Source: an uncultured Ignavibacteria bacterium
Lineage (GTDB): Bacteria; Bacteroidota; Ignavibacteria; Tepidaquicellales; Tepidaquicellaceae
Assembly (NCBI GenBank): GCA_937872315.1
Contig: CALMST010000252.1
Location: 71,781 to 135,780, forward strand
DNA length: 64,000 bases
Direction: 5' to 3'
Notes under the pieces: generated by a model
Seen by the model: only the letters and a program-made list of their open reading frames with translations
What the model was told of the DNA's origin: nothing
The model's database searches: none
Position numbers and translations under genes: made by a program
Shown: in pieces, positions 9,901 to 28,517 of the stretch
Layout: each line of letters starts with the position of its first letter
Position numbering within the stretch: position 1 is the first letter of the stretch

Positions 9901-12900
9901 CGTATCTCTGTATCCATTCATTTTCATTTTTACGATATTCAAATCTTAACGCATCGTGATAAGAAGTTAATTGTTCTACGGCTTTACCGAGCATTTCCTG
10001 TGTAATACTTTTATCAATGCTTAGCAGAATACTCTGATTGAAATGTGATTTATTCTCCCCTGCTCTTTCAAAATATGCTTGCTGAACCGGAAGTAATCCG
10101 GCAATACCGGATAACAATCCCTGCTCCCCTGTATAAATATCCTTTGATCTTGTCTCAATTGCAGATGATAATTTTCTGATAGTCTGATAAATAAATATAT
10201 CAGCAGGTTTCATTTCTATACCTGCTCTTCTTGCTCTGCTTACCACCTGAATAGTAATGATCGAATCACCTCCGAGTTCAAAAAAATTATCATTTATTCC
10301 GACTTTATCCAAATTCAATAATTCTTTCCAGATCCCGGCAATAGAAATTTCAATTTCATTTCGGGGCTCTTCATGTTCATTTGTCAGAAGTTCACTAAGA
10401 TCAGGATCGGGTAAAGCTTTTCTGTCAACCTTTCCGTTCTTATTCAATGGTAAACTTACCATATCCACAAATATTGCGGGGATCATATACTCTGGAAGTT
10501 TTCTTCCCAGATATGCAATGATCCTTTCCTTATCAAATTTCCCTTCAGGTACTATATATCCGATGAGTCTCTTTCCGCCTGATGATGTCTCGGAAGCTAC
10601 TACAACAGACTGCTTAACTGCTCCGCTTTCCTGAATGACACTTTCTATTTCACCAAGTTCAATTCTGAAACCTCTGATTTTTACCTGATCATCTATTCTG
10701 CCTTTGTATTCAATATTGCCGTCATCAAGCCAACGGCAGATATCCCCGGTTTTATATAATGTTGAATCAATGTCTTTACTGAATGGATTTTTTATGAAAC
10801 TCTCTTTAGTCAGTTCCGGAGAATTCAAATATCCGCGGGCCAAACAATCACCTCCTAAATACAACTCACCGTTGACTCCTACGGGTACTCTGTTTCCGGC
10901 TTTATCAAGAATGTAAACTTTGACATTAGAAAGCGGTTTCCCGATAGGAAGTGAATTTCCATAAAATTTATTTTCAGATGCGTTAAATTCTATCGCCGTA
11001 ACAGTTGTCTCTGTTGGTCCATACTCATTATAAAATACGGTGGTGTTTTTCCAGTAATCGGCTAATTCTGGCTTGCACACATCACCACCTGCTATTACTC
11101 TTTTAAAATAAATATGGTTTTCCGGTTTTACATTTTCCAGAAATGAAGGTGTAGCGTGGAGATGTGTTATTTTCTGATCAACTAAAAATTTTTCAAAAAG
11201 CTCTTTATTGAGCTGCAATCCATCCGGAATCAAAACAAGAGGCACTGCATTAAATAAAGCAAGAAAAATCTGTTCGACTGATGCATCAAAACTGAAATTT
11301 GCGAATTGTAAAATTCTTTCATCTTCTGATATTCCAAAATATTTAGTCTGAGCAAATATGAGATTTACAACTGTTCCGTGCTCTATCATTACGCCTTTCG
11401 GCTTGCCTGTGGATCCTGATGTATAAATTATATAAGCAAGATTTTTCTGATCAATATTTACTTTGACATTTTCTTTTGAATGACTTTTTATCTCCTGATC
11501 AGTATCAAGTTCAGTTGCTCTGTCAGAATACTCAGCAGGTAGTTTTGATCTGCATTTCTTACTGCTGAGAATAAATTCAGCTCCGGTATCTTCAATTATA
11601 AACTTTTTCCTGTCCTCAGGGTATTGGGGATCAATGGGAACGTATGCCGCTCCTGCCTTGAGAATACCGAGTATTCCCGCAATCATATCAAATCCACGCT
11701 CAATACAGATCGGAACTAATGTTTCATTTTTAATTCCCCTGCTTATCAAATAATTTGCGATCTGATTCGACTTCTCATTAAGTTCAGGATATGTTAAACT
11801 TTGATCTTCATAAATCAAGGCTGCTTTATCAGGAGTATTCTCTGTCCGCTCTTCTATAATTTCTATAATACTTTTTTCTTTCGGAAATTCAGCATTCGTT
11901 CCGGCAAAAGCATCTAATTGTATATTTTCATCTTCGGTTAATATCGATAATGAATCTATTTTTTCTTCAGGTGATCTGGCAATAGAATTCAGCAGCTCCG
12001 AATAATGATCTGCCATTCTTAAAATTGTTTTCTCATTAAAAAGCTCTGTGCAGTAAATGATCTCACATTTCAATTCACTCTCAGTTTCAGTAATATTGAA
12101 AGTAATTTCATACATTGATGTATCAGGGATCAGATCTTCGCGTTCAATTTCCAGATCATTTAATTTCAATGCTTCAGCCTCAGGTGTGTTATGAAGGATG
12201 AACATTACCTGGAACAATGGACTTCTGTTTAGTATCCTCTCCTTTACAGTTGCTTCCACTACTTTTTCAAAAGGCACTTCCTGATGACCAAATGCTTTAA
12301 GTGAATTAGATCTGACTTCTTTTAGAAATTCAGTGAATGGAATATTACCTTTTACTTCGTTTCTCAGCGCAAGTGTATTTATAAAGAATCCGATGAGCTT
12401 CTCAAATTCCTGTTTATGTCTGCCTGCTACAGGAGTTCCTGCACATATATCTTCCTGACCAGTGTACCTGTAAAGAAGTACATTGAAAGCCGAAAGCAAT
12501 GTCATGAAAAGCGTAGCATTATTTTCATTTCCTAAAACAACAAGTTTGTCCCTTAATTCTTTTTTAATTTCAAATTTTACTGAAGCACCGCGGATACTTT
12601 GTGAATTTGGTCTGGGAAGATCAGTAGGCAGTTCGAGTGGCTCTACTCCCTGAAGTTCATTTTTCCAGAATTCCAGTTTATTATTCAGAATTTCATCCCG
12701 GATATTCTCACGCTGCCAAATGGCATGATCGGCGTATTGAATATTCAGCTCAGGCAAAATACTTTTCCTGTTCTCAATGAAAGAAGAATATAGTTCCAGA
12801 AACTCTTCCGCAAAAATAGAAACAGACCATCCGTCTGAAGCTATGTGATGCAAGGTTATGATCAATATATTTTCATCAGTTCCTGTGTTGATAAGATCTG

Positions 12901-13636
12901 CTCTGACCATGTGATCATTTGAAAGATCAAATGGTTTGTTGATCAATTGCCGGATATATCTTTTTAATCCCGCAGGATCATCTTTAAATATTGTCCCGTT
13001 TGATTCGTTTAATTTCCATACTGTATTTTCATTTATCTTCTGATAAGATTTTCCGTCAATTTCAAAATATACAGTCCTCAGTATTTCATGTCTTCTGATT
13101 ATTTCATTTAAAGTATTAACTAAAGCTTCTTTATTGAGTTTTCCGTTTAACTTAAACACAGCCGGTAAATGGTATTGCAAACTTCCTTCAAGCTTATCTA
13201 TAAAAAGTAATCTTTCCTGACTGAATGATAACGGAATTTCTTCAGGCCTTTTTCTGACTGAAACGGAAATGTCAGATTTTTCTTCAGACTTATTTTCCTT
13301 TTTCTTATCTATTAATCCGGCTAACTGAGAGATAGTTGGTTTTAAAAAAATTTCACTTGTCTCAAGCTCTACAGAAAAATGTGAAGAGATGCGTGACAGC
13401 AGCTGAATAGCTTTAATACTGTTTCCGCCTGACATAAAGAAATCATCGCCCGTACCGAAATCACCATGACCAAGCAAGTTCTTCCAGTATTCAAACAGAA
13501 CTTTTTCAGTCTCACTTACTGGAGCGATAAAATTACTGCTGTCAGAACTGACAGTTTTCTTATCTTTGGTATTTAGTAAATTAAGAAGGTCTTTACCTGT
13601 TTTGCCTTTTAATGTATTTGATTGTTTTTTCTTCAA
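1..13636 (-). CDS. Non-ribosomal peptide synthetase, at least 4545 codons in window, C-terminus beyond position 1; domain order T-C-A-T-E-C-A-T-C-A-T-C-A(partial)
   Basis: Hand translation of the reverse frame (codon first bases at coordinates = 1 mod 3) is open from TTG 13636 to the window edge. Carrier-Ser motifs: GGNS (Ser 13418-13420), GGDSI (10262-10264), GGHSL (5669-5671 and 2498-2500). HHxxxDG motifs: HHIASDGWS (~12826-12851), HHLAVDGVSW (9677-9706), HHLLFDGWS (8243-8272), HHISSDGWS (~5088-5116), HHIASDGWS (1911-1938). A-domain cores: YTSGSTGKPKG (~11394-11440), FTSGTTGRPKG (~6819-6862), YTSGSTGRPKG (~3655-3695), YTSGSTGKPKG (~461-521). The last readable residues, FTSRGIRVVNAYGPTETTVCATLTDDPVREHNVVTIGKP, span 118-2. 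The ORF is missing from the supplied track because no stop codon lies inside the window. Confidence 0.9.
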   Translation of the reverse strand, partial: MKKKQSNTLKGKTGKDLLNLLNTKDKKTVSSDSSNFIAPVSETEKVLFEYWKNLLGHGDFGTGDDFFMSGGNSIKAIQLLSRISSHFSVELETSEIFLKPTISQLAGLIDKKKENKSEEKSDISVSVRKRPEEIPLSFSQERLLFIDKLEGSLQYHLPAVFKLNGKLNKEALVNTLNEIIRRHEILRTVYFEIDGKSYQKINENTVWKLNESNGTIFKDDPAGLKRYIRQLINKPFDLSNDHMVRADLINTGTDENILIITLHHIASDGWSVSIFAEEFLELYSSFIENRKSILPELNIQYADHAIWQRENIRDEILNNKLEFWKNELQGVEPLELPTDLPRPNSQSIRGASVKFEIKKELRDKLVVLGNENNATLFMTLLSAFNVLLYRYTGQEDICAGTPVAGRHKQEFEKLIGFFINTLALRNEVKGNIPFTEFLKEVRSNSLKAFGHQEVPFEKVVEATVKERILNRSPLFQVMFILHNTPEAEALKLNDLEIEREDLIPDTSMYEITFNITETESELKCEIIYCTELFNEKTILRMADHYSELLNSIARSPEEKIDSLSILTEDENIQLDAFAGTNAEFPKEKSIIEIIEERTENTPDKAALIYEDQSLTYPELNEKSNQIANYLISRGIKNETLVPICIERGFDMIAGILGILKAGAAYVPIDPQYPEDRKKFIIEDTGAEFILSSKKCRSKLPAEYSDRATELDTDQEIKSHSKENVKVNIDQKNLAYIIYTSGSTGKPKGVMIEHGTVVNLIFAQTKYFGISEDERILQFANFSFDASVEQIFLALFNAVPLVLIPDGLQLNKELFEKFLVDQKITHLHATPSFLENVKPENHIYFKRVIAGGDVCKPELADYWKNTTVFYNEYGPTETTVTAIEFNASENKFYGNSLPIGKPLSNVKVYILDKAGNRVPVGVNGELYLGGDCLARGYLNSPELTKESFIKNPFSKDIDSTLYKTGDICRWLDDGNIEYKGRIDDQVKIRGFRIELGEIESVIQESGAVKQSVVVASETSSGGKRLIGYIVPEGKFDKERIIAYLGRKLPEYMIPAIFVDMVSLPLNKNGKVDRKALPDPDLSELLTNEHEEPRNEIEISIAGIWKELLNLDKVGINDNFFELGGDSIITIQVVSRARRAGIEMKPADIFIYQTIRKLSSAIETRSKDIYTGEQGLLSGIAGLLPVQQAYFERAGENKSHFNQSILLSIDKSITQEMLGKAVEQLTSYHDALRFEYRKNENEWIQRYGTANGILLTADLRNSRADKKELEDLIKEHAENYQKSLDIEKGELARFVLVLTPEEELNNRIFIIIHHLAVDGVSWRILLGDLEMILENYRNGIEPELGEKGSSYRQWYQALAEFGKSKRLQSQENYWKQIQDSYKQIKVDKEYSAELIAKDIELKTVELDQTKTRHLLKDVPGIYHTDINDILLCALAMTLCSRENSGQIVIGMEGHGREEISDRIDISRTVGWFTSIYPVLLNADSEKNISDHIKSVKEQIRRIPGKGLGYGVLKYINKNGNFEDSITPEILYNYLGQLDNVTGESNIFSGTPAAAGTDISPEQKVREKLTINAIIKDDKLVLNWNYSTKHFEFDTINKLTSDYSENLNTIITHCLGVKNSDLIFTPSDFGLGSEISYEELDGFLDEKYGDTTRRNNIESIYRLSGLQEGMLFHALYDTDGGAYIEQLSCDLKDPDIELIRKSWNQLIVNHSSLRSGFYNDVFRIPVQVVYRDVEMPVILKDLSGMGSEEQRLTIEGISEKNRLNGFSLSSVPLMNIVLLKLDESNYKMIWTSHHLLFDGWSLAILMEEFLKTYEDLTGSDENIKTDSDNYLDYIRFLERKDKDEQLIYWKDYMQGIEQSTLLPFSGITTQRTKGVGDYDTFNLILNEETKDRAESYAQKNRLTLNTLLQGVWSYLLHRYTGNEDVAFGVIVSGRPDELPGIEKKVGLYINTLPLHSRLLQKDKAETINWLQEIQSKQVESAKYQYTPLQEIQNQTGISGDLFDSIIVFENYPLNELIRSKNWKLKVDNVMMKEQSNYPLSLLINNSDQININFIYNENVFNREYINEISKHFENVLQQIISNEKKSINDIYILSESDEKKLLSEFNDTEAEYPVDKSAVELFEEQVLKTPESIAVVYENESITYKELDDRASKLANHLIGKGINPGDKIGLLSYRCIEMMTGIFGILKAGCSYVPFNTDYPAERIQFITEDCGIKNIVYTDKNLLEKSGLKEFSFYDFINIEDSESASDKTPGIKAKIDSCIYVMFTSGTTGRPKGIAVSHRNVIKLVYDTGGIAIREGDRVLQWSNYSFDGSTYDIYGSLLTGASLHLIKDEWASDGDELARVMTEQKISVVFMTTALFNTIVDINAEAFRSLRKILFGGEMVSLSHVNRALDVVGDNVIMHVYGPTETTTYATSYTVNEKRNEGTVPIGKPLSNTQLYVLDTSGKLVPVGVGGELHIGGDGVSMGYISNEELTKEKFIPNPFSNDPDSKIYKTGDLCRWTAEGNIEYLGRIDDQVKIRGYRIELSEIESVLFEIESVSNAVILAKEDKAGTKKLVAYVVPEDGFNFNKEEIISQLRHKLPDYMIPALWVEMESLPLNTSGKINKKALPDIDASELLRNEYIAPRNETEEKLAAIWKDLLNIEQAGINDNFFELGGHSLLAIRLISAIRREFNSEISIKDIFYYPTITELADLILKGNSFSVLPPIKADDRPEHIPLSFSQERLWFIDRLEGTVQYHIPAVFRLKGDINKTALSKALQSIIERHEVLRTVIYEKNGTGYQKILNSNKWGLHEMDGAEFKNDAAGLQSYIQDLINKPFDLLSDFMLRADLINVDENESVLVVTMHHISSDGWSLSVIVNELSELYKAYCENREANLLPLQIQYADFSIWQKKYLTDEVLDKKLEYWKSKLTGAEPLQLPADFIRPAVQSIRGASFEFKISKELTDKLEQLSKQNGATLYMTLLAAFNILLYRYSGQKDISVGSPVAGRQQKEAEHLIGFFVNTLVLRNEIENSFTFTDLLEQVKINTFGAFENQEVPFEKIVEAVVKQRDVSRSPLFQIMFILQNAPEVPEIDLNKLVLEKEEFVNNISKFDISVSMTETPEGLIGSADYCTDLFKENTIAIMMTHFKELLNSVAEDPENKIGSLPMLTKQEEHQILSDFNGKEVDYPKDKTIFELFEDQVKKTPDSIAVVFEDEKLTFKELDEKSNQLAHYLHSKGVKIETLVPICLERSLEMIIGLFGIMKSGGAYVPVDPEYPQERINFLLEDTSASIVVSKKESSSRFIFPVNTELVNIDSDWSEIEKFSKEKVDTVINSTNLAYVIYTSGSTGRPKGVMNEHRGVVNRLLWGRDYFNLTSEDSILQKTTYCFDVSVWELFSFLISGARLVFARPGGEKDTSYLKSVIDKEKITMIHFVPSMLEIYLNDIERGDNTGLKYVVCSGEALKPSHAELFKEKFEKTELHNLYGPTEAAIEVTYWELPRDGKKIEIVPIGKAISNTSMYILNNEDELVPVGGIGQLHIGGVQVARGYLNRPELTKEKFVKDPFSKIPGSRIYRTGDLSRWLPDGNIEYAGRMDDQVKIRGFRIELGEIESVLMQSGLVQQTVMLAPEDASGSRRLVAYVTTSGDFKKEEAISYLQSKLPQYMVPAVWVEMESFPLNQSGKINKKLLPKPADTEYASNEYIAPRNITEEKLAEIWKELLHADRIGIKDNFFDLGGHSLLAMRVISSVRKELGYELSIKDFFIQPTVEELARLLEKNSDSKVYKLPIAKIKERPEFIPLSFSQERIWFIDKLEGSIQYHMPAVLRIKGNVDTEALESTFKNIVNRHEILRTVIKEHEGKAYQYVNEKDGFELEFIDGTKYNGHQTALKNYIQELINVPFDLAADNMLRGHLIKLNDDEQILVLTMHHIASDGWSISVIVKELVEFYKAHEEKRDPDLNPLEIQFADYSIWQREYLQGEVLDNKLDYWKEKLYGVEPLQLPVDFARPAVQSKKGANANFSIDKNLTDSLLKFSRQNDVTLFMTLLSAYNVLLYRYSGQEDFTVGSPVAGRQQAETEDMIGFFINTVAMRSEINGELPFRDFLHKVRSTTLEAYEHQDVPFEKIVDAVVKQRDMSRSPLFQVSFMLQNTPEVPELKLGDAILNVEEFSNNISKIDITFSLTETPEGIEGNVEYCTDLYTEETILRMTSHFKEILVSVLKSPDQKIGTLNMITEKESRQLLIEFNDNERNYPKEKTIADIVEEYGKQIPESIALEYENEKVSYIELNERSNQFAHYLKEKGVKTETFVPICIDRSIEMIIAIFGILKAGAAYVPIDPEYPEERMLFMLEDINANLLITSRKTFDNGLRLPELNSVEIIEIDSEKSEISKHSKENLQKDITPENLAYVIYTSGSTGKPKGVMIEHKGVVNLSLSQEELLWLKPGMKTLQFASSGFDASCYDIFNTLLSRGCLVLCNKEDILSADKFQYLINEYGIELATLPSSFQQTIRDMTAEMPSIKTIVSAGEALNIETAETFTSRGIRVVNAYGPTETTVCATLTDDPVREHNVVTIGKP
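1040..2340 (-). other. NRPS domain: condensation domain C4
   Basis: IPLSFSQERIWFIDKLEG (2281-2338) and HHIASDGWS (1911-1938). Confidence 0.85.
2420..2590 (-). other. NRPS domain: carrier domain T3
   Basis: FFDLGGHSLLAMRV, Ser codon 2498-2500. Confidence 0.85.
2690..4150 (-). other. NRPS domain: adenylation domain A3 (hand-derived code DVWHVSLIEK, Ser-like)
   Basis: Verified motifs: YTSGSTGRPKG (~3655-3695), YCFDVSVWELF (~3525-3570), KITMIHFVPSML, YVVCSGEA, NLYGPTEAAIEVTYW and SGKINKKLLP (~2641-2690). Confidence 0.8.
4210..5510 (-). other. NRPS domain: condensation domain C3
   Basis: PLSFSQERLWFIDRLEG (~5461-5510) and HHISSDGWS (~5088-5116). Confidence 0.85.
5590..5760 (-). other. NRPS domain: carrier domain T2
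   Basis: FFELGGHSLLAIRL, Ser codon 5669-5671. Confidence 0.85.
5850..7330 (-). other. NRPS domain: adenylation domain A2 (hand-derived code DGYFLGVTYK, no match I recognise)
   Basis: Verified motifs: VMFTSGTTGRPKG (~6819-6862), SFDGSTYDIYG (~6690-6735), ISVVFMTTALFN, KILFGGEMVS, HVYGPTETTTYATSY, GELHIGGDGVSMGY and SGKINKKALP (~5821-5858). Confidence 0.8.
7400..8690 (-). other. NRPS domain: condensation domain C2 (DCL-like)
   Basis: YRLSGLQEGMLFHALY (~8641-8680) and SHHLLFDGWS (8243-8272). Confidence 0.8.
8790..10140 (-). other. NRPS domain: epimerization (E) domain
   Basis: HHLAVDGVSWRILLGDL (9677-9706). It follows a GGDSI carrier and precedes a C domain with DCL-type motifs. Confidence 0.8.
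10180..10350 (-). other. NRPS domain: carrier domain T1, GGDSI type (the type usually found upstream of E domains)
   Basis: FFELGGDSIITIQVV, Ser codon 10262-10264. Confidence 0.85.
10420..11900 (-). other. NRPS domain: adenylation domain A1 (hand-derived code DAEHIGEVTK, identical to the A domain of the upstream NRPS)
   Basis: Verified by codon-level translation: FDASVEQIF (~11255-11300), QKITHLHATPSFLEN (~11115-11160), RVIAGGDVC (~11075-11100), NEYGPTETTVTAIEF (~10985-11035) and NGKVDRKALP (10403-10462). Confidence 0.85.
11950..13250 (-). other. NRPS domain: condensation domain C1
   Basis: IPLSFSQERLLFIDKLEG (13203-13260) and HHIASDGWS (~12826-12851). Confidence 0.85.
13330..13530 (-). other. 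NRPS domain: N-terminal carrier domain T0 (GGNS type) of the second NRPS
   Basis: ETEKVLFEYWKNLLGHGDFGTGDDFFMSGGNSIKAIQLLSRI, Ser codon 13418-13420. It is preceded only by a ~36-aa Lys-rich segment. Confidence 0.85.
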
Positions 13637-13642: not shown

Positions 13643-16600
13643 TTAAACCGCGGTTTCCTCTGTTAGTTTTATGTTTTTACTGTGAGCGTTAGTCTTTGTA
13701 TCAATATTCCATTCTGAATTTGCCAGAAATTCCTGAAATGGTTTATTCTTTTGAGTAGGCTGAAAATAAAGTTTAATTTCGCCTAAACCTTTTTCTACAC
13801 AATAGCTTTCAAGCTCTGATAAGATAGTTCCTTCCACATTCCTGCCAAGTACTCTGCAGCTTAATAGAAATGTGTCTATTTCAAGAATGTTACCGTTAAC
13901 TTTTCCCATAACCAAACCGACTATACCGTATTCTCCGAATCTGTCCTTTACATCAACAATCCTGCAAATGGAATTTTCATCACCGGTATATCTTTTAACT
14001 TCTTCAGGAGTTTTTCTGACTCCGTTAAGATTAAACTGATTGGTTCTTAATGTTAACTGAACCGCTCTTTCAAGATCTTTTGGTCCCGGAGCTTTCATAT
14101 CCACTTTTATCTCAAGTGATTTCAGAAAATCATCAAGTGTACCGAAGTTTTCTTCTTCAGATTTTCTCTGCTTTTCGACTTTGTACATCTCATTTCTTTT
14201 TCTGTCCTCATCTGTGATCCGGAAATAATCAAAAGCCCAGATATGATTAAGAAATTCTGAAAAACTTTCATCTTCACCGGGTAATGTCAAAGATAAAACA
14301 TCGGGACAATTCTGTGTCATCTGGTCAGTCTCAAATTCATTGTCATCTACAAAAATAAAGCTGTTTATTCCCAGATTTAATTCCTTTGCTATTGATACCA
14401 GGTTTTGAGGTTTCGGCTCCCAGTTAATCCTGTGTGCCGCAATGTGTTCACGTTTTAATTTCATTCCGGGATGTTTGTCAAATACTTCCCAGACATCATC
14501 TTCATTATTCTTGCTGCTTAAAACTAATAAGAATCCTTCGTTATATTTTTCTATAAAAAATTCCTGCAGCTCAGAATAATTCTCATCTATTTCTACATTA
14601 AGTGCTCCCACTTCCCCGCAGATTCCTTTCCATAATGTATTGTCACAGTCTAGAGCTATAACTTTATATGAAGGATTCATAAACGCACTTACCTTTCTTG
14701 TCATGTATGTTCCGAGTGCCGCATAAAATTCCGGAGTAAATGGCATATGACCGAGCTCATCCGTTTTCGGATCATAAACATCTTCGACATCATACAGTTC
14801 TTTAATAACATTAACATCTATGAATTGTACAGAAGATATCCTGTTGAGAAATAATTCAAGCTCTTTATTTATTTTATCTAAATGATCAACGGTTTCCTTC
14901 TCAAAATCTTTATCAGTTATTGAATTTACCGGAACGATCATTACTAAAAACGGTATGTATATTTTTTCAACGGCATTTTTTAAAATTTCCAGAAATTCTT
15001 TAAACGTTTTGTCCAAAAATTCTATCTGCTCTGATGCATTGTCAGCTTTTTTATCTCTCAGCCAATCTTCCGTTCTGATGAATAAAAAATTAATTCCTTT
15101 GTCACTGTACAATAAACTTCCGGGATTCATCAGCTGCTGAAACACCTGATTGTATGGTGCAATATCAATTTTAATTTTTATGCCGATCTCATTGCTCCAG
15201 TATTCCATGTATTCTTTTACCGGCTCTGTCACAAATGATGAGCAAACATTTACGGGCATTGAGGCCACAGTTGATTTTTCCTGAACTGATTCTTTATTTA
15301 TATTAATTTCCGTCTCCATCTTTTTATTTTCATTACTCCACTTTATATATTCTGATAAATAATTATCCGGTTTACTGACAGCATTTTCAAGAAGTCCGAT
15401 ATAATCATCCAGAAATTCTTTCATTCTTTTCTCCGAATATAACCTTGTATTGTAACTTAAATGTAAATTAATTCTTAAATCATCCGGTACAGCATCCAGT
15501 TTAAAATCCAGAACTGACTGAAACAGATCTTCATTTCCTGATCCGTAAGATTTTAATTCTATAACTTCATTATGTGTTTTATCCGTTTCGGAATTGGATT
15601 TCATTTCCGATAAATTATCAATGATCTGAAAATTCATCATTGTATCAAAAAAAGGATTCCTTGAGACATCCCTCTTTTTTATAATATCCTCAACCATTAG
15701 ATCGAAAGGGTAATCCTGATTATTGAAAGCTCCTACTATATCATTTCTGCATTTGCCTATAAACTCGGATAATTTTAAATGCTTCTCAGGCGAAATTCTG
15801 ACCGGTAGAAAGTTTATGAATACTCCTACAAGATCTTCAAGATCAGGATGACTTCTCCCTGAGCTCACTGTTCCGATAACAACATCTTCCTGACCGCTTC
15901 CCGCGGCTACGGATAGTCCGTAAAGGATCATCATTAAATTATTCAGGGAAACATTATTTCTGACTGCCATCATCTGAAGCTCTGAGGTCAATTTCTCAGA
16001 AACTATCCCGCTGATTTTATTCCCTGAATATGAAAGAACTTCCGGTCTTTCATTATCCGCCGGAAAATCCAAAAGAGGAATACCGTTTTTATAAACTTCC
16101 TTCCAGTATTTCCCCTGCTCCTCAAAAGTTGATTTATGCCATTCGGCATAATCTTTATATTGTATCGGAAGAGGCTTAATATCATTTTCTTCTTTAAGAC
16201 AGCAAGAATTATAAAAGCTTAAAAAATCATTTATCAAAATTTCTTTCGACCAGCCGTCACTGATTATATGATGAATATTGAAAAGTACAATATGTTTTTC
16301 TACGGATATTTTAAATAAATAAATTCTTATGAGCGGACCTGTTTTAAGATCAAACGCTTTTTTTATATCTTCTTCTCTGTATTCTTTTATTATTGCATCA
16401 GCGTTTTCTGAACCGGTAAGATCTTTCTCAAATATTTCAAACCCTGTGCTTTCATAAGATAGTATTTTCTGATACGGCTCGCCTCTGTTTTCAATAAAAA
16501 CTGTTCTGAGTATTTCATGCTTCTTCACTACTTCTTCAAATGCCGATCTGAAAGCATCGGGATTTAATTTACCTTTTATCTCAAACAGATTTGAAACATT

Positions 16601-19600
16601 GTATGCTTCAGATCCATCTTTGAATTTACTAAGTATCCAGAATCTCTTCTGAGCATGTGACAATTCATAAAGATCCTTTTCCGGTTGTTTTTTAATATCT
16701 GGAAACTGGGTACTCTTTTCAATTTCAAGTGCTTTTGAAAGTCTGTAAATAGTGGGATTTGAAAATATTGTCCCGATGTCAGTTCTGACATTCAACACCT
16801 TATTGATCCTTGAAGAGAGTCTGACTGCATTTAGACTATGACCTCCTAGTTCAAAGAAATTATCATTAATTCCTACCTTTTCAATTTTTAGAATTTCTTT
16901 CCAGAGTTCAGATAATTTTACTTCAATTTCTGTTTCCGCTTCCTGATATTCGGCATTTACTGTTTCACTGATCTGGGGATCCGGAAATGCTTTCCTGTCA
17001 ATTTTACCGTTGGATGTTACAGGAAATGATCCCATTTCAACCCAGACAGCCGGGATCATATATTCCGGTAATTTTTTTGCAAGGAAATTTCTGATCCTGT
17101 CACTTTCATATCCATGCTCAGGTATTACATAAGCAACTAATCTGTTATTTCCGCTGCTGTCAGTACCGGATAACACCACTGAATTTTTTACAAGCCCTGA
17201 ATCAAGTATCACTGCTTCAATTTCGCCAAGCTCTATTCTGTAACCGCGGATCTTTACCTGATCATCTATTCTCCCAAGAAACTCTATATTTCCGTCTGTC
17301 ATCCATCTTCCCAGATCACCTGTTCTGTACATTAACTCTTTTCCGGATTTTATAAACGGATTATTTACAAACTTTTCCTCAGTTATCTCAGGCAGATTCA
17401 AATAACCTCTAGCAAGACAATTCCCCGATATGCATATCTCACCGGAGACTCCGACCGGACAGATCTCATTATAGTTGTCAGCTATATATACACGAATATC
17501 GGATAGTGGTTTTCCGATCGGTAAAGTTAAATTACTGAAAGTTTTCCGGTCATTTCTTACCTGATATTCTATAGCTGTAACTGTAGTTTCAGTCGGACCA
17601 TATTCATTATAAAAATTAACTTTATCTTTCCAGTTATCACTTAATTCATGTTTGCAAACATCCCCGCCTGCTATGACCCTTTTAAGATCAGGGAAATTGC
17701 TGCTATCCGGAACAATGTTTTCAAGAAATGCCGGAGTTGCATGAAGATGAGTTATTTTTTTCTCAATTAAATATTCATTGAATTTTTCCTGATCCAGCTG
17801 AAGTCCTTCACGAAATAAAACTAAAGTTGCACCATTGGTCAAAGCCAGAAATATCTGTTCGACAGATGCATCAAAACTGTAATTTGAAAACTGCAATATT
17901 CTGTCAGCAGAAGTAATATTAAAATATTCACTTTGTGCTCTGACAAGATTTACTACGGTTTTATTTTCTATGATAACACCTTTTGGTTTACCTGTCGAAC
18001 CGGAAGTGTATATCACATATGCCGCATTTTCAGATTTCAGATCTGTCTTTGGATTATCTGATGATTGATTTTTCAGTTTCAAAATTGTTTCAGGATCATC
18101 AAGAATTATATTTTCTATGTTTCCATTATCGTGTAATTTCAATGAACTCTTACTGCTGCTTAAAATAATACTCGCATCTGTATCCTGAAGCATGTAACTG
18201 ATCCTGTCTGCCGGATACTCCGGATCAATCGGGACATAAACACCGCCAGCCTTGAGAATTCCAATAATTCCAATTATCATATCCAGACTTCTTTCAATAA
18301 TTATCGGTACAAGTTTTTCATTTTTTACACCTTTTAAAAGTAAATAATTTGCCAGTCTGTTGGAGCGGGTATTGAGTTCCTGATATGACAGCTCTTCGTC
18401 ATGAAAGATGAGAGCTGGATTATCAGGTGAGTTCTTAACCTGATCAGGTATAAGGTCTGTAAGTAAAACGGAATTGAATTCCGTTTTACCCAACAAAACT
18501 GTCCCGTTGAATCCCTCAAGTAAATTCTCCTCTTCCGGCGGAATAATTCTTACTCTTTTCAATTCCGATGAAAAATTTTCCTTTAATTGCTTTATAACAA
18601 ACAATATTCTTTTTACAAAAAGCTCTGCTTCAGTTTCATTAAAATATTCCCTGCTATATTTGACAATAAACTGAACGGGATTTTCTTTTCCGTAATCCCT
18701 CCAGTATAACTGCAGAGGACCTGTATCATAATCACTTTCCAGTCTTATTACTTCTGATTTTATTTCACTTCCAAAATCAGGTGAAAAATTCAAAGGCTCA
18801 TAATTTAAACTGACCTCAAATAAATTTTCCTTTTGTATATCTCCTGATGACTTATCCTTTAGATTTCTTTTGATCTCACTTAAAGGATAATTCTGATGCC
18901 GGTAATCGCTTCTCTGTGCCTGCTTGATGAAATGCAGAATATCTTTTACTGTCTGATCTCCTTCATATACTCCCCTGAATGGCAATACTCCGCTGAACAT
19001 TCCTACTGTATTTCGTAATACCTTCGAACCTCTTTTATGTACCGGTACACCAATAACAGGTTCTTTCACCTTTGAAGTCTTTCCAAAATAAATTAATAAA
19101 GCTGCTAAGATCAATTGCTGAATTCCGGAATCAGTTGTCTTCTCAATTTCTGACAACTCAGCTTTTTCTTCTTCCCGTATATTTAAAACATATTTTCCAA
19201 TATCAATCACTGACTTATCTTTCCTGATATACTTTCTCTGTAATAAAGGTTCAGATCTGTGACTTATCTTTTCCTTCCAGTATTTCTCATCATTACTGTA
19301 TGTTCCGGAATTTAAATATTCACCGGACTTTGAGATCTCTTCCAGATATGAAGGATAATTAAATTCATCTTCACCACCTTCTGTTAATGATTTATATTTT
19401 TGTGCTACATATTGAATGAAAACTATAAAACCAAAACCATCAGTGATCAAATGATGATATCTTCCGAAAAACCAATGTTCTTTATCAGATATTTTTAAAA
19501 GAGAATGTTCATATAAAGGATTTTCCTTTTTCAATATAAAAGGTGTATTGAATCTGTTTTGCATCCATCGAATAGCATCTTGTTCACTATCTTTCTTTCC

Positions 19601-19867
19601 TGAAAAATCAATATCAACAATACCCGTATCAGCGGATCCTTCATTCAAATAAAAATCTGTCCCTTCATTTTCCGTATCGAATCTCATATTAAAAACATCA
19701 AATACATACGGAGCCGAATTCACCGTTTGAAAAAATTTTTCTTTATTCAGTGAACCCTTTAATTTAATATATCCGCCAAGATTATAATGAGGACTGTCTT
19801 TATTTATCAACTGATCCACATATATGTCCCTTTGTGCCGGATGCATTGGAAAAGTTGCTTTTTGCAT
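13643..19867 (-). CDS. Non-ribosomal peptide synthetase, 2074 aa: starter-type C - A - T - C - FkbH-like (HAD phosphatase + Cys acyltransferase) domain
   Basis: ORF-track translation shows HHLITDGFG (19436-19456), AAYVIYTSGSTGKPKG (~17979-18025), NGKIDRKAFP, FFELGGHSLNAVRL (Ser 16835-16837), HHIISDGWS (~16248-16275), ALDCDNTLW (14630-14656) and FLLSCRVLGR (13841-13870, Cys 13856-13858). Confidence 0.93.
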   Translation of the reverse strand: MQKATFPMHPAQRDIYVDQLINKDSPHYNLGGYIKLKGSLNKEKFFQTVNSAPYVFDVFNMRFDTENEGTDFYLNEGSADTGIVDIDFSGKKDSEQDAIRWMQNRFNTPFILKKENPLYEHSLLKISDKEHWFFGRYHHLITDGFGFIVFIQYVAQKYKSLTEGGEDEFNYPSYLEEISKSGEYLNSGTYSNDEKYWKEKISHRSEPLLQRKYIRKDKSVIDIGKYVLNIREEEKAELSEIEKTTDSGIQQLILAALLIYFGKTSKVKEPVIGVPVHKRGSKVLRNTVGMFSGVLPFRGVYEGDQTVKDILHFIKQAQRSDYRHQNYPLSEIKRNLKDKSSGDIQKENLFEVSLNYEPLNFSPDFGSEIKSEVIRLESDYDTGPLQLYWRDYGKENPVQFIVKYSREYFNETEAELFVKRILFVIKQLKENFSSELKRVRIIPPEEENLLEGFNGTVLLGKTEFNSVLLTDLIPDQVKNSPDNPALIFHDEELSYQELNTRSNRLANYLLLKGVKNEKLVPIIIERSLDMIIGIIGILKAGGVYVPIDPEYPADRISYMLQDTDASIILSSSKSSLKLHDNGNIENIILDDPETILKLKNQSSDNPKTDLKSENAAYVIYTSGSTGKPKGVIIENKTVVNLVRAQSEYFNITSADRILQFSNYSFDASVEQIFLALTNGATLVLFREGLQLDQEKFNEYLIEKKITHLHATPAFLENIVPDSSNFPDLKRVIAGGDVCKHELSDNWKDKVNFYNEYGPTETTVTAIEYQVRNDRKTFSNLTLPIGKPLSDIRVYIADNYNEICPVGVSGEICISGNCLARGYLNLPEITEEKFVNNPFIKSGKELMYRTGDLGRWMTDGNIEFLGRIDDQVKIRGYRIELGEIEAVILDSGLVKNSVVLSGTDSSGNNRLVAYVIPEHGYESDRIRNFLAKKLPEYMIPAVWVEMGSFPVTSNGKIDRKAFPDPQISETVNAEYQEAETEIEVKLSELWKEILKIEKVGINDNFFELGGHSLNAVRLSSRINKVLNVRTDIGTIFSNPTIYRLSKALEIEKSTQFPDIKKQPEKDLYELSHAQKRFWILSKFKDGSEAYNVSNLFEIKGKLNPDAFRSAFEEVVKKHEILRTVFIENRGEPYQKILSYESTGFEIFEKDLTGSENADAIIKEYREEDIKKAFDLKTGPLIRIYLFKISVEKHIVLFNIHHIISDGWSKEILINDFLSFYNSCCLKEENDIKPLPIQYKDYAEWHKSTFEEQGKYWKEVYKNGIPLLDFPADNERPEVLSYSGNKISGIVSEKLTSELQMMAVRNNVSLNNLMMILYGLSVAAGSGQEDVVIGTVSSGRSHPDLEDLVGVFINFLPVRISPEKHLKLSEFIGKCRNDIVGAFNNQDYPFDLMVEDIIKKRDVSRNPFFDTMMNFQIIDNLSEMKSNSETDKTHNEVIELKSYGSGNEDLFQSVLDFKLDAVPDDLRINLHLSYNTRLYSEKRMKEFLDDYIGLLENAVSKPDNYLSEYIKWSNENKKMETEININKESVQEKSTVASMPVNVCSSFVTEPVKEYMEYWSNEIGIKIKIDIAPYNQVFQQLMNPGSLLYSDKGINFLFIRTEDWLRDKKADNASEQIEFLDKTFKEFLEILKNAVEKIYIPFLVMIVPVNSITDKDFEKETVDHLDKINKELELFLNRISSVQFIDVNVIKELYDVEDVYDPKTDELGHMPFTPEFYAALGTYMTRKVSAFMNPSYKVIALDCDNTLWKGICGEVGALNVEIDENYSELQEFFIEKYNEGFLLVLSSKNNEDDVWEVFDKHPGMKLKREHIAAHRINWEPKPQNLVSIAKELNLGINSFIFVDDNEFETDQMTQNCPDVLSLTLPGEDESFSEFLNHIWAFDYFRITDEDRKRNEMYKVEKQRKSEEENFGTLDDFLKSLEIKVDMKAPGPKDLERAVQLTLRTNQFNLNGVRKTPEEVKRYTGDENSICRIVDVKDRFGEYGIVGLVMGKVNGNILEIDTFLLSCRVLGRNVEGTILSELESYCVEKGLGEIKLYFQPTQKNKPFQEFLANSEWNIDTKTNAHSKNIKLTEETAV
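13646..15260 (-). other. FkbH-like domain (HAD-IIIC phosphatase core plus C-terminal Cys-containing acyltransferase-like part)
   Basis: DxDxT motif in VIALDCDNTLWKG (14630-14656). Downstream motifs VLSSKNNEDD, FVDDNEFE and RTNQFNL. Conserved TFLLSCRVLGRNVE (Cys codon 13856-13858). This pattern is characteristic of FkbH/OzmB-type glyceryl-ACP-forming enzymes. Confidence 0.8.
15340..16700 (-). other. NRPS domain: condensation domain immediately upstream of the FkbH-like domain
   Basis: LYELSHAQKRFWIL (~16631-16680) and HHIISDGWS (~16248-16275). Confidence 0.85.
16790..16960 (-). other. NRPS domain: peptidyl carrier (T) domain
   Basis: FFELGGHSLNAVRL, with the phosphopantetheine Ser codon at 16835-16837. 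Confidence 0.85.
16990..18450 (-). other. NRPS domain: adenylation domain (hand-derived specificity code DAEHIGEVTK)
   Basis: Motifs TSGSTGKPKG, FDASVEQIF, ITHLHATPAF, RVIAGGDV, NEYGPTETTVTAIEY, YRTGDLGRW, GRIDDQVKIRGYRIELGEIE and NGKIDRK are present. The code was obtained by manual alignment to GrsA-PheA positions 235-517. Confidence 0.85.
18580..19867 (-). other. NRPS domain: N-terminal starter-type condensation domain (Cs)
   Basis: The protein begins directly with a C domain (MQKATFPMHPAQRDIYVDQL...HWFFGRYHHLITDGFG). No A-T loading module lies upstream. From memory, the layout resembles lipoinitiation C domains such as the N-terminus of SrfA-A. Confidence 0.65.
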
Positions 19868-19962: not shown

Positions 19963-20763
19963 TTAATATTTCTTTGTCAGCCTTTTTGTGTGTGTGGAAA
20001 CTGCGGCTTTTGTATAATACTTGTAATACCTGAGATTTTTTCTGTTCCACCAGTAGTTGATGTTTATGGAAAAATCCATAGACCTGACATGATGCCACCA
20101 GTGCAAAGGAATGTACAATATATCTCCGGGATAAATTGTAGCTTTATAAGCCTGGGATTTTTCATACAGAGGAAATTTTTTGTGATCTACATTGTCAAGG
20201 TCTATCAAACTGATCTGCCTTAAAGTCTTTGGACCATGTACATTCGGATAAAGATATTTATCATCATCAGGATGAAAAAGTATGATTTCTTTTTTCCCTT
20301 TGATCTGAATAAGAAAATTATCCGATCCGTCAAAATGCAGCGGGGATACACAACCTGCACCGCCTATCCATAAATTTCTTACTTTGTTTTTGTCAGTTTC
20401 TTTCATCCACTTTGGTTCATCAAGATCTCCGAGAAGTTCAGGAAAATTATCCGGAATGGAAGACTGCTGAAGATAATATGCCTTATTTGTTTTAATATAA
20501 TCCACCGCCTCATCAAAAGGCAGAAATACCCTGGAAACACTTCCTTTATGATAATCATAAACTCCGCTCTGACTTGTCCTTACATCTACTTTCTTCTTTC
20601 CAAATAAAGAATTGAAATATTCCGCTGACCATTTTTTAAAAGCTTTGTAATCGTTTGCTCCGCCTTTTATTATTACCGGGATGCTTGGCTTATAATAGTT
20701 ATTGTCGAATTCATCTGTTGATAATTCTGAAACGGTTGAAATATCTTTATATTTTGTATCCAT
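19963..20763 (-). CDS. JmjC / Cupin_8-type Fe(II)/2-oxoglutarate-dependent oxygenase (putative tailoring hydroxylase)
   Basis: NLWIGGAGCVSPLHFDGSDNFLIQIKGKKEIILFHP (HxD metal ligands) and YIPLHWWHHVRS (distal His). It sits between the thioesterase and the first NRPS gene on the same strand. Confidence 0.7.
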   Translation of the reverse strand: MDTKYKDISTVSELSTDEFDNNYYKPSIPVIIKGGANDYKAFKKWSAEYFNSLFGKKKVDVRTSQSGVYDYHKGSVSRVFLPFDEAVDYIKTNKAYYLQQSSIPDNFPELLGDLDEPKWMKETDKNKVRNLWIGGAGCVSPLHFDGSDNFLIQIKGKKEIILFHPDDDKYLYPNVHGPKTLRQISLIDLDNVDHKKFPLYEKSQAYKATIYPGDILYIPLHWWHHVRSMDFSININYWWNRKNLRYYKYYTKAAVSTHTKRLTKKY

Positions 20764-20864: not shown

Positions 20865-21596
20865 TTAATTAAATGCTTTTCTATGATTTGAGTTTACTGA
20901 TAAAGTTTTCTCAATTATTTCCATTACTTCTTTCTTCTTTTTGAAAATAAAAAAATGCTTTCCCTCTATTCTGTTGAAATCAATTTCCAAGTTTGTTTCT
21001 TTCTGCCAGAGAAGAATATCGTCAACTTCCATGTCTTCTTCGGTGCCTGTTATAACAGTTATCGGAATGTTTAAAGGCTCTGAATATTTATGAACATAAT
21101 TTTCACATACTTTAAAATCTGATCTCAGTATCGGTTCAAAAAATGCCATAAGTTCTTCAGTATCAAGTATCTCTTCAGGTATTCCGTCAAGATCCTTCAT
21201 TTCCTGAATGAACTCCTTCTGAGGCATTAAATGTCTCTTTCTTTCCCGCTTTTCAAATACTGAAGGACCTGAAGTTCCTGTGATTATTAAATGCATTGGT
21301 GTCTTGTAATTTTTTTCTTCTAATTTTCTCGTAAGCAGATACGCGAGAAGTCCTCCCATGCTGTGACCGTACAATACATAATCTTCATCGCTTATTTTGG
21401 TTTTTATCTGATTAAACAGATCTTCTACAAGCTCGCCTGCATCTGATATAAGAGGTTCTTTTATTCTGGGAACCCGCCCCGGATAATCAAGAGTATGGAA
21501 AATATAATGCGAAGGAGCTGCATCCTCAAACTCTCGGTATGAATATTTATTGCCGCCTGCATACGGAAGACAAAATATTTTCAAAGGTCTGATCAT
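20865..21596 (-). CDS. Type II (editing) thioesterase, alpha/beta hydrolase
   Basis: FCLPYAGGN near the N-terminus, nucleophile elbow GHSMGG, ~240 aa, NRPS context. Confidence 0.85.
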   Translation of the reverse strand: MIRPLKIFCLPYAGGNKYSYREFEDAAPSHYIFHTLDYPGRVPRIKEPLISDAGELVEDLFNQIKTKISDEDYVLYGHSMGGLLAYLLTRKLEEKNYKTPMHLIITGTSGPSVFEKRERKRHLMPQKEFIQEMKDLDGIPEEILDTEELMAFFEPILRSDFKVCENYVHKYSEPLNIPITVITGTEEDMEVDDILLWQKETNLEIDFNRIEGKHFFIFKKKKEVMEIIEKTLSVNSNHRKAFN

Positions 21597-22000: not shown

Positions 22001-24466
22001 CTAATTTGTAAAATTAATTTTCCATTTTACCCTGCCGTTATTTTGTTCATCAGTTGTCATAAGCCAAAGAGGATAATATTTTCCTTCTGCCCAGTAATCA
22101 ATAAAATCATCATAAAATCTGCTTCCCGGATTTCCGCTTTGTCCGCCGGGATAAATTCCGTAAGCTTCCGTTTCCTGAGTCATATTCACAACCATTCTCC
22201 AGCTCGGTCCGTGAATGGTTTCCGTTGCATTTATGTTATGTTTGCTACCGCCAATTGGAATGTTATACCTCCCAAACGGAACCAGTCTGGATAAATGATT
22301 TATCTGTGTTCCCTTGAATTTATCCCAGTCAAGTCTTCCCTTACTTTCATGTTTTATTAACTGCTCCGATGTAGTTTTAAACGCAGCTGTTACTATATCG
22401 GTCAGAGTTTCTTTTTTATCGGTAGTAATATCATCAACAAATATAAATCCCGGATCTCTTAACAAACCATCGATCAGTGAAGTCTCATCAGGACGCTTTA
22501 TTATTTCAGGAGCATCTTTGTAATCATCATCATAAATGGACTTGTAAAAATTCATCCAGAAAAGCTCAAAGACCGTTGCTCCCTGTGAACCGGCATCATT
22601 CCGCAGATCCCAGTTTTTTAAAAGATCATAATATTTTTTTTCATCCGGACTGAGATCACTTACAGTTATATTTGCTAAAATTAATGGTCTTATCACTTCC
22701 GCTACAAGATTGTAATTATCAGTCTGAAGTTTTAACATATCCTCAGTTGTAATATTTTCCATAACTTCTAATCTTCTGTTGATCTCCTTTCCTCTCCAGA
22801 CAGGATAATTTCTTCCAAGATAATACGGATAGGTTTTATCATCTTCAGGCTTCTGATTAGCGCTGCTTACAAATCCTCTTTCGGGATTATACTGGAAAGG
22901 TACTTCATCCTGAGGTATCATTGCCTGCCATAAATAACTGCTGTCAAAACCGGGCATGACAAAATCACCCTGCTCTTTCCATTTTGCCGGCCACTCTCCC
23001 TGGGTTTTGATTGCAATGTCTCCGCTTTTAGTTGCAAATATTACATTCTGACCCGGAGTCTTAAGTTCAAGTATGGCTTCATTGAAATCATCATAATTCT
23101 TCGAATGATTCAGCAGATAAAATGCTTTAAGATCGTTACTCGGATCATTACCCTTCCATCTTACAGCATAATATTTGTTGTTTGAAATTTTTGAACCGCT
23201 GAATTTATTATCATACATTACAGGACAAAGATCGTCTCCCAGTTTAACATACGAAACGGAATCCGTGAATTCAGCTGAACCATTTATCTTTATAATTTCC
23301 GGTCTCCAAATTGTCCGGTGCCATTCCCCGTTATACCAGTATTCATTCCTGCTTTCATCTTTGAATCTTATCTCAAAATAATCCCTGACATCCCTTCCTC
23401 CGTTTGTAAATCCGAATGAACAACTGTCGTTAAATCCGACGATTACTCCCGGAACTCCCGGAAAGCTTACTCCATATACATTTACAGAAGGAGCAGTGAT
23501 CTGAACCTCATACCAGATTGACGGCAGATTCATAGTCAAATGAAGATCATTACTCAATATAGGTGCTCCGGATCTGGTTTTCTTTCCGCTTACAGCCCAG
23601 TTATTACTTCCGTTTTCCCTGTTAGGCTTCTCCTGTTCCGATACTTCAATATCTTCTCTCTTAAGATATACGGAATCAACATCCTCCGGGATCACTGGAA
23701 ACACTCCTTGTTTTTTTATCTGTGCTCCGTCTGGTATTACCGGATCAAGCGAATCCTGAATTATCGGAAACAGCAGATCAAATCTTTCCTTATCAAAATA
23801 ATTCTTTGCATTTGTCATCTCAAAATCTTCGTCAAATCCAGCAAGATCATAACTCATATATTTCATAAATAAAACTGTCTTTAGATTGCTCCATTTTTCA
23901 GGTTTATATCCCAGCAACTTATATTCAACCGGATACTTGTTCTCCGGAAGATTTTCAATATAAGAATTTACACCTGCAGTATATGCATCATATACAGCTT
24001 TCATCACAGGATCATTTTCAATTATTTTCAAAGTATTTTCAGCCGAATATACCATTCCCAATCTTCTCATTTGTCTGTCCCTTTCAAGCATCCCTGCACC
24101 CATTATCTCACTTAATCTGCCGCCAGCTGAAAAAGTCTGTAATTCCATTTGCCATAATCTGAACTTTGCATGTAAATAACCCTGCGCAAAATATGCATCA
24201 TTCTCCTGTTCAGCAAATATATGAGGAACAAGTCTGTCATCTATATATACATTAACCTTTCCCTTTAAAGATGAAAAATTCAGATCCTGATCAAAATTTT
24301 CATTTAACGGCTCAGCGTTCTGCCAGAAACCCTGCTGAGGACTTAAAAACTTACCTATTGCCGGAATTTGAAGACTTCCGACTTTCCAGCTTTTATTTAA
24401 TGTAAATATTAATATTACCGTAACAAAACCTGTAAGTATAAAAGACTTTAACTTTATTGATTGCAT
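22001..24466 (-). CDS. Penicillin acylase family Ntn-hydrolase (PvdQ / acyl-homoserine-lactone acylase-like), N-terminally membrane-anchored or secreted
   Basis: 821 aa with an N-terminal hydrophobic helix (SFILTGFVTVILIFTL). Candidate beta-subunit nucleophile in NRENG-SNNWAVSGKKTRSGAPILSNDLHL (Ser287 codon 23606-23608). Same strand as the downstream cluster genes, 36 nt upstream of the next gene. Confidence 0.85.
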   Translation of the reverse strand: MQSIKLKSFILTGFVTVILIFTLNKSWKVGSLQIPAIGKFLSPQQGFWQNAEPLNENFDQDLNFSSLKGKVNVYIDDRLVPHIFAEQENDAYFAQGYLHAKFRLWQMELQTFSAGGRLSEIMGAGMLERDRQMRRLGMVYSAENTLKIIENDPVMKAVYDAYTAGVNSYIENLPENKYPVEYKLLGYKPEKWSNLKTVLFMKYMSYDLAGFDEDFEMTNAKNYFDKERFDLLFPIIQDSLDPVIPDGAQIKKQGVFPVIPEDVDSVYLKREDIEVSEQEKPNRENGSNNWAVSGKKTRSGAPILSNDLHLTMNLPSIWYEVQITAPSVNVYGVSFPGVPGVIVGFNDSCSFGFTNGGRDVRDYFEIRFKDESRNEYWYNGEWHRTIWRPEIIKINGSAEFTDSVSYVKLGDDLCPVMYDNKFSGSKISNNKYYAVRWKGNDPSNDLKAFYLLNHSKNYDDFNEAILELKTPGQNVIFATKSGDIAIKTQGEWPAKWKEQGDFVMPGFDSSYLWQAMIPQDEVPFQYNPERGFVSSANQKPEDDKTYPYYLGRNYPVWRGKEINRRLEVMENITTEDMLKLQTDNYNLVAEVIRPLILANITVSDLSPDEKKYYDLLKNWDLRNDAGSQGATVFELFWMNFYKSIYDDDYKDAPEIIKRPDETSLIDGLLRDPGFIFVDDITTDKKETLTDIVTAAFKTTSEQLIKHESKGRLDWDKFKGTQINHLSRLVPFGRYNIPIGGSKHNINATETIHGPSWRMVVNMTQETEAYGIYPGGQSGNPGSRFYDDFIDYWAEGKYYPLWLMTTDEQNNGRVKWKINFTN

Positions 24467-25629: not shown

Positions 25630-25636
25630 CCATTAA

Positions 25637-28449: not shown

Positions 28450-28517
28450 TTTAATTATTTTTTGTATAGAATTTTGCTTTTTTATGCTATAAACTAAAAT
28501 AATTATATTTATAAATT

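Follow-up and report, generated by a model that had tools for sequence, protein, structure and literature searches.

Cluster-encoded delipidation, as carried out by PvdQ, Tem25 and PdnM, decides whether a lipopeptide plays the role of a surfactant, a toxin, a prodrug or a siderophore. The genes of these three acylases are located within the clusters that they serve, whereas GdnD is encoded 1 Mb away from its cluster and acts in trans on the glidonins (PMC10587159). A group comprising the penicillin G acylase (PGA), the cephalosporin acylases and the N-acyl homoserine lactone (AHL) acylases has been set apart from the group of the lipopeptide acylases PvdQ, MhtA/BntA, Tem25 and aculeacin acylase (PMC13592322). 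Here, we present a computational analysis of an acylase gene that heads a nonribosomal peptide synthetase (NRPS) operon in an uncultured Ignavibacteria bacterium. The gene lies in a stretch of 64,000 nt (assembly GCA_937872315.1, contig CALMST010000252.1, positions 71,781 to 135,780 of the forward strand), which as a whole is referred to as the window and is AT-rich (GC 0.29-0.39).

The best reading of the locus, to which we assign about an even chance, is that the acylase would deacylate the N-acylated product of its own cluster in the periplasm. An initial annotation of the DNA had suggested this logic of acylated synthesis, export and deacylation, and had called the enzyme PvdQ-like. The logic is plausible and fits the evolutionary pattern described below, but the kinship with PvdQ fails, and orthologues of the acylase are found free of NRPS genes in about 70 Chitinophagaceae species.

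Results

Family and catalytic residues of the acylase

The acylase gene encodes a protein of 821 aa that matches the Pfam model PF01804 (Penicil_amidase) over residues 70-804 with an E-value of 5e-191 and 637.6 bits (cut-off 21.3), a profile match which assigns it to the penicillin amidase family of N-terminal nucleophile (Ntn) hydrolases. From the N-terminus, the precursor consists of a predicted signal-anchor helix, the alpha domain, a linker and the beta domain. The N-terminal hydrophobic stretch is preceded by lysine residues and provides the sole 19-residue window of the protein scoring above 1.6 on the Kyte-Doolittle scale; in all relatives compared, this helix is conserved and followed by the motif LSPQxGFWQNAE. 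Inspection of the N-terminus revealed neither a lipobox cysteine nor an obvious A-x-A cleavage site. The helix is probably an uncleaved signal anchor or an atypical signal peptide, with the catalytic domain exposed to the periplasm.

The predicted nucleophile, Ser287, sits behind Gly286 in the motif NGSNNWAV and aligns with residue 1 of the beta chain (beta1) of the solved cephalosporin, penicillin G and PvdQ acylases. Together with His309 (beta23), Asn537 and Arg558, it is invariant across 44 acylase homologues. His309 was placed as beta23 by counting from Ser287 in gap-free alignments of the D-P-H motif, and Asn537 and Arg558 are presumably the oxyanion Asn and the conserved Arg, an assignment made from their invariance and from the motifs of the family rather than from a residue-level alignment. 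Judged by these conserved residues, the acylase is a catalytically intact precursor, and it should mature by self-cleavage at Gly286/Ser287 into an alpha and a beta chain. The initial annotation had correctly recognized the family, the N-terminal membrane or signal helix and the candidate serine.

Its statement on kinship did not hold. Among the solved relatives, the family profile scored highest with the D-succinylase (217 bits, full length), followed by penicillin G acylases (up to 128 bits), cephalosporin acylases (about 113 bits), MacQ (36 bits) and the PvdQ chains (2wyb; 32 bits), which are among the lowest. None of the NCBIfam equivalog models searched with the acylase matches; the PvdQ equivalog NF051460 reached 36.2 bits against a cut-off of 950, and this over residues 273-469 only. 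By these scores the acylase sides with the PGA/cephalosporin/AHL group and not with the lipopeptide-acylase group, and the designation PvdQ-like is therefore incorrect as a kinship statement. The enzyme was accordingly rejected as a close relative of PvdQ, to which it has no more than a remote similarity.

Operon layout and NRPS domains

The acylase gene opens an array on one strand which continues with the genes of a small protein, a type II thioesterase, a Cupin_8 hydroxylase and NRPS1 (Table 1). The intergenic gaps amount to 36, -4, 101 and 95 nt, with the ATG of the thioesterase overlapping the stop codon of the small open reading frame (ORF) in the tetranucleotide ATGA, and no convincing terminator was found between the genes of the array. 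A scan for promoters and terminators, in which Bacteroidota-type promoters were not included, gave counts no different from those of shuffled sequence, and neither Rfam nor repeat searches over the operon head and the 670-nt upstream spacer yielded a match. This layout bears out the earlier placement of the acylase as first gene of the NRPS operon; the small membrane-protein gene between acylase and thioesterase had been overlooked.

A starter condensation (C) domain in NRPS1, likewise proposed before, is supported by comparison with solved structures. The N-terminal C domain (approximately 18518-19867) has its best solved matches in RzmA-Cs (E-value 1e-29) and CDA-C1 (E-value 6e-18), the two known solved starter C domains, and chains of PvdL match it only weakly (E-value about 3e-6) via an internal segment. 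Because of this starter C domain, an N-acylated first residue of the NRPS product is a reasonable prediction. In the second module of NRPS1 (13646-15307, minus strand), an FkbH-like/HAD domain with weak Pfam matches to FkbH_N and Hydrolase occupies the place where an adenylation (A) domain is expected, and the protein following NRPS1, whose probable start is the TTG at 13636, begins with a carrier domain (approximately 13300-13636, minus strand). The FkbH-like domain in place of the A domain and the carrier domain at the start of the next protein together suggest a glycerate-type unit as second building block.

Outside of the Ignavibacteria, the nearest relatives of the NRPS1 initiation module were found in Chitinophagaceae with 43-50% identity, in a search that missed the known orthologues (about 2050 aa), apparently owing to candidate selection. 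Related to this initiation module are single-module NRPSs of 1330-1370 aa (C, A, T, TE) that occur as stand-alone enzymes in many Chitinophagaceae (L093, 10001-14110; P0249-P0263). Such enzymes could make N-acyl amino acids, which would be candidate natural substrates of the Chitinophagaceae orthologues of the acylase.

A conserved gene pair with an NRPS-free locus in Chitinophagaceae

Homologues of the acylase number in the thousands, are 814-821 aa long and 60-64% identical, and belong almost exclusively to Chitinophagaceae such as Ferruginibacter. For a survey of the genomic context, 80 loci from species-representative genomes carrying relatives of at least 50% identity were scanned by tblastn. 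The small protein follows the acylase in 74 of these loci, the other six being contig ends. A thioesterase, Cupin_8 or NRPS gene was present in only four of the 80, namely those with an acylase identity of at least 66%. One further close relative (L009, 85% identity) lies on a contig of 2.65 kb that ends inside the small ORF.

The small protein starts with TTG in the window and with ATG in its homologues. Searches against Pfam (up to an E-value of 5) and NCBIfam gave nothing significant. Its family comprises 1090 cluster representatives in a library at 50% identity, nearly all of them stand-alone proteins of about 110-130 aa, and it also adjoins the acylase in the Chitinophagaceae locus L005 (12615-12962; family of about 115 aa). 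This predicted four-helix membrane protein probably cooperates with the acylase, or is at least its constant companion. A comparison of the window with L008 gave dN/dS values of 0.064 (acylase), 0.109 (small protein) and 0.061 (thioesterase), so that all three genes are under purifying selection, which is strong for the acylase.

In about 50 Chitinophagaceae genomes (for example L005, L015 and L020), ORF clustering revealed the conserved order MiaE, 134-aa ORF, acylase, small protein, DUF5686 and rhodanese. The first three same-strand genes of this locus may form an envelope-related unit. The DUF5686 protein carries a CarboxypepD_reg domain and has about 850 aa, and the rhodanese belongs to UPF0176. 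The acylase and the small protein have been retained as a pair through inversions.

Probable transfer into Ignavibacteria and linkage to NRPS clusters

The host of the window was determined with its ClpC protein. The top 120 homologues are 78-100% identical, the top match being the protein of the window itself. Nearly all of those with a taxon name are from Ignavibacteria, a few are assigned only to Bacteroidetes/Bacteroidota, 'bacterium' or soil metagenome, and Chitinophagaceae are absent from the 120. By this marker the host is an Ignavibacteria bacterium. The 15 acylases of at least 65% identity to that of the window form one clade with a neighbour-joining bootstrap of 100/100, which is nested within the Chitinophagaceae acylases. 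The split that leaves the Sediminibacterium-type and other deep branches outside of Ferruginibacter plus the NRPS-linked clade is supported by 78-87/100. The mean acylase identity is 64% between the linked clade and Ferruginibacter and 54% between Ferruginibacter and Sediminibacterium, and the small protein follows the same gradient. The simplest reading of these data is one transfer of the pair from a Ferruginibacter-like donor into the Ignavibacteria lineage.

Every acylase of the linked clade with a readable context lies in an NRPS cluster. Eight distinct contexts were found, i.e. the window, L001/L008, L002/L010, L004, L006/L012, L011, L088 and L089/L090. These differ in their outside flanks (K+ transporter and rhomboid; peptide-binding protein; indigoidine-A-like; MerC and TonB receptor) as well as in their tailoring genes (Cupin_8, Cupin_8-ankyrin, CmlA-like, methyltransferase). 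In the basal member L004 the pair is internal to the cluster, in the order NRPS, NRPS-TE, ABC exporter, acylase, small protein, thioesterase, methyltransferase and CmlA-like. The acylase of L004 (10001-12460, on a contig of 790 kb) has GSNLW in place of GSNNW, and its gene directly follows that of a 579-aa fused ABC exporter (8169-9908). Among the relatives of at least 50% identity, all occurrences of the pair in Ignavibacteria were within NRPS clusters.

A further Ignavibacteria contig (L094) was found by a metagenome search for relatives of the divergent TonB receptor encoded upstream of the acylase. It matches the right flank of the window in gene order with 55-87% identity (MerC, TonB receptor, CxxCxxCC, AldDH, epimerase, SDR, AnmK, HATPase, SpoIIE). 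The contig contains neither acylase nor NRPS; rpsF-ssb-rplI, a PD40 peptidase and TerC are found to the left of MerC instead. Presence and absence of acylase and NRPS therefore coincide, as for a single block. The order of the MerC-like, TonB receptor and CxxCxxCC genes of the window (25138-29105, plus strand) is kept in this NRPS-free contig, and the best NCBIfam matches of the receptor are heme/hemoglobin and ZnuD types, all below cut-off. As part of a host backbone that is conserved without the cluster, the TonB receptor was rejected as evidence for a siderophore. Further along this flank, the genes at 33999-36178 (plus strand) encode an anti-sigma-type kinase (HATPase_c_2) and a SpoIIE-type phosphatase, probably a partner-switching module, which are kept in L094 and L097.

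Two further genomes, that of Chitinophagaceae bacterium LB-8 (GCA_025628885.1; L091) and a metagenome-assembled genome from Bacteroidota (L092), contain a homologous cluster core, with 56-58% identity for the thioesterase, 77-80% for the CmlA-like protein and 40-48% for the NRPS. Both clusters open with a phosphopantetheinyl transferase, a type II thioesterase and a CmlA-like hydroxylase (L091, 6421-9942; L092, 6492-9841); a homologue of the phosphopantetheinyl transferase was not found in the window.

Clade-specific substitutions near the active site

NRPS-linked and unlinked acylases were compared in a locus alignment of 76 sequences, six of them linked and 70 unlinked. Five positions (201, 308, 311, 343 and 461) are fixed in the linked sequences in a state different from that of at least 90% of the unlinked ones, and 258 positions are identical between both groups. 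Two of the five flank the catalytic His309: in the linked clade, Leu takes the place of Pro-beta22, and Thr, Ser or Asn that of Gly-beta25. Leu308 is found in the window and in nine of the ten other sequences of at least 65% identity, the exception being the basal P0010, and each of the 70 unlinked loci has Pro at this position. The unlinked orthologues retain the D-P-H motif, as do 7eby, 35sz and 4hst among the solved relatives. This pattern suggests a retuning near the acyl pocket.

Table 1. Coordinates of the acylase operon and of acylase features in the window
Feature	Position	Strand	Basis
Acylase ORF, Penicillin-amidase-family Ntn hydrolase precursor, ATG start, 821 aa	22001..24466	-	ORF call, PF01804, alignment to 7eby
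Acylase N-terminal hydrophobic helix, residues 3-24	24395..24460	-	Kyte-Doolittle, conservation
Ser287 codon AGT, predicted autoprocessing site and N-terminal nucleophile (beta1)	23606..23608	-	Sequence, alignment
Acylase residues 308-311, Leu-His-Leu-Thr (beta22-beta25), around the catalytic His-beta23	23534..23545	-	Alignments
Small hydrophobic protein, 123 aa, TTG start, probably four transmembrane helices	21593..21964	-	Neighbour of acylase in 74/80 loci
Type II thioesterase	20865..21596	-	PF00975, E 2e-38
Cupin_8/JmjC-type hydroxylase, tailoring enzyme	19963..20763	-	PF13621, E 2e-50
NRPS1: starter C, A, T, C, FkbH-like	13643..19867	-	Pfam domains, domain comparison
NRPS2: T, C, A, T, C-like (possibly E), C, A, T, C, A, T, C, A...; runs off window start	1..13636	-	Domain self-BLAST; C-like segment by Pfam

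Apart from the acylase, the window encodes a second, unrelated Ntn hydrolase, a gamma-glutamyltranspeptidase (56040-57719, plus strand).

Discussion

If the acylase deacylates the product of its own cluster, the sequence of events may have been as follows. The pair, ancestrally an NRPS-independent core locus of Chitinophagaceae, would have entered the Ignavibacteria lineage by horizontal transfer, joined at the 5' end to an NRPS cluster of Chitinophagaceae type that begins with a starter C domain. The acylase would be tethered by its single N-terminal helix at the periplasmic face of the inner membrane and would cleave itself at Gly286/Ser287. Following export of the N-acylated NRPS product, it would hydrolyse the amide between the fatty acid and the first amino acid; a bond of this type, an N-acyl amide, is implied by the starter C domain and is what these acylases cleave. 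By analogy, the purpose could be either maturation, as for PvdQ and PdnM, or self-protection, as for GdnD and Tem25. In Chitinophagaceae, the core pair would serve clusters in trans, in the manner of GdnD, and it would have been packaged with the cluster on entering Ignavibacteria, a host without the pair. Chitinophagaceae clusters without an adjacent acylase fit a helper that is supplied in trans in the donor group; GdnD is a precedent for such action (PMC10587159). Deacylation of the cluster's own product is further favoured by the tight one-strand array, by the nesting of the acylase of an Ignavibacteria host among those of Chitinophagaceae, by the NRPS context of every readable clade member, by the joint absence of acylase and NRPS in L094, by the internal place of the pair in L004, by strong purifying selection and by the substitutions beside His-beta23.

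Several observations weigh against deacylation of the cluster's own product. In about 70 Chitinophagaceae species, acylase and small protein occur without an NRPS within 10 kb. The conserved gene order identifies the pair as an old unit whose ancestral role is, on this comparison, independent of NRPS, and the ancestral substrate was therefore not the present lipopeptide. The homologous clusters L091 and L092 are without an acylase within 10 kb upstream, so that the cluster family as such needs no adjacent acylase. All NRPS-linked cases descend from a single acquisition, and the co-occurrence, seen in a small sample, therefore amounts to a single event in evolution. In the basal linked member P0010, the residues around the active site are still the ancestral ones; NRPS linkage thus preceded the substitutions. 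The window shows no exporter, and in sequence the acylase is far from every proven lipopeptide acylase, as the scores of PvdQ (32 bits) and of the D-succinylase (217 bits) illustrate. Finally, an AlphaFold2 model of the acylase, computed from a low-diversity alignment of 44 sequences with relatives that are 61-92% identical, reached a pLDDT of 57.6 and a pTM of 0.47, with the active-site segments below 50.

The initial annotation had taken conservation of the acylase at this position in relatives without NRPS genes as a point that would speak against its proposal, and had called for an analysis of co-occurrence. The results support the proposal in part. The syntenic Ignavibacteria contig, a relative well suited to this question, lacks acylase and NRPS alike, whereas about 70 Chitinophagaceae loci have the pair and no NRPS; the eight linked contexts of the Ignavibacteria clade show co-occurrence, whereas L091 and L092 are homologous clusters without an adjacent acylase.

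A less likely but serious alternative is that the pair is a housekeeping passenger which was co-transferred with the NRPS and keeps an envelope function independent of it, such as the turnover of N-acyl amino-acid lipids or of other N-acylated compounds. The conserved NRPS-free core locus would be expected under this explanation, as would the 258 positions shared by linked and unlinked acylases, the retention of the partner gene, the homologous clusters with no adjacent acylase and the ancestral active-site neighbours in the basal linked member. The pattern in Ignavibacteria points in the other direction: among the relatives considered, the pair is confined to NRPS clusters and is absent together with the NRPS in L094, the linkage survives a cluster rearrangement, the pair being internal in L004, and the clade-specific changes stand directly beside His-beta23.

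An enzyme that is unrelated to the cluster and merely adjacent, either a quorum-quenching AHL acylase (QuiP- or HacB-like) or a beta-lactam acylase, appears improbable. The acylase does fall on the broad PGA-like side of PF01804 together with the AHL acylases, and many members of the family are promiscuous. However, it matches no NCBIfam equivalog, its membrane tether and dedicated membrane partner suggest a membrane-associated substrate, and the strict NRPS linkage in the Ignavibacteria lineage would be left unexplained. A true PvdQ orthologue in a pyoverdine-like siderophore pathway, in favour of which the TonB-dependent receptor 1.7 kb upstream and the hydroxylase genes of the cluster family could be cited, deserves hardly any credence, as it is contradicted by the equivalog score (36 bits against 950) and by the position of PvdQ among the most distant solved relatives, by the MerC, TonB receptor and CxxCxxCC genes being host backbone in the cluster-free L094, and by initiation through a starter C domain that PvdL matches weakly, and no pyoverdine-type genes were seen in the window.

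Beyond periplasmic deacylation by the acylase of the window, a wider proposal can be made, in which our confidence is low. The acylase from the D-succinylase/PGA-like branch and its four-helix partner might constitute a second, independently evolved lineage of lipopeptide delipidases. Its core envelope function would be exerted in trans on starter-C NRPS products of Chitinophagaceae; after the move into Ignavibacteria it would have become portable, with the entrance of the pocket retuned by the changes from Pro-beta22 to Leu and from Gly-beta25 to Thr. All proven delipidases are from one branch of the family, and if the acylase of the window does delipidate its cluster's product, it would have been recruited independently from a different branch and would depend on an obligatory membrane partner. 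A function would then be assigned to a very common uncharacterised gene pair of soil and freshwater Chitinophagaceae. In genome mining, the final product of such clusters might be without the lipid tail predicted from the starter C domain. Furthermore, when a gene that is core in the donor group travels with a cluster into a new host, as appears to have happened here, this could serve as a usable signal of functional dependence.

Comparison with known systems

The Chitinophagaceae core pairs are direct orthologues with 60-64% identity and have the partner gene, the N-terminal helix and the catalytic residues in common with the pair of the window. They differ in context, with no NRPS within 10 kb, MiaE upstream and DUF5686 and rhodanese downstream, as well as in four residues: Pro-beta22, Gly-beta25, Ile343 and Tyr461 in Chitinophagaceae stand against Leu, Thr, Val and Phe in the NRPS-linked clade.

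Among the solved relatives, the D-succinylase of Cupriavidus (PDB 7eby/7ea4) comes closest to the acylase. It aligns over the full length, belongs to PF01804 and shares the G-SNNW nucleophile motif, the N-D-x-H motif and a single-chain precursor of about 820 aa; the similarity is modest although the alignment is long, so that it is not an orthologue. It acts on small N-succinyl-D-amino acids, and we know of no membrane partner or NRPS context for it. With the cephalosporin (glutaryl-7-ACA) and penicillin G acylases, the enzyme has the fold family, Ser-beta1 and the conserved Asn and Arg in common. It shares His-beta23 with the cephalosporin acylases, whereas PGA has Gln at beta23. The scores of both types are only 113-128 bits, and they are soluble periplasmic enzymes.

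From PvdQ and the lipopeptide-acylase group, the acylase of the window differs in its branch of the family, in its predicted membrane anchor and in its dedicated small membrane partner. What it would share with PvdQ, aculeacin A acylase, MhtA/BntA, Tem25, GdnD and PdnM is the proposed logic, in which an NRPS product is exported and then freed of its N-terminal fatty acid by a periplasmic Ntn acylase.

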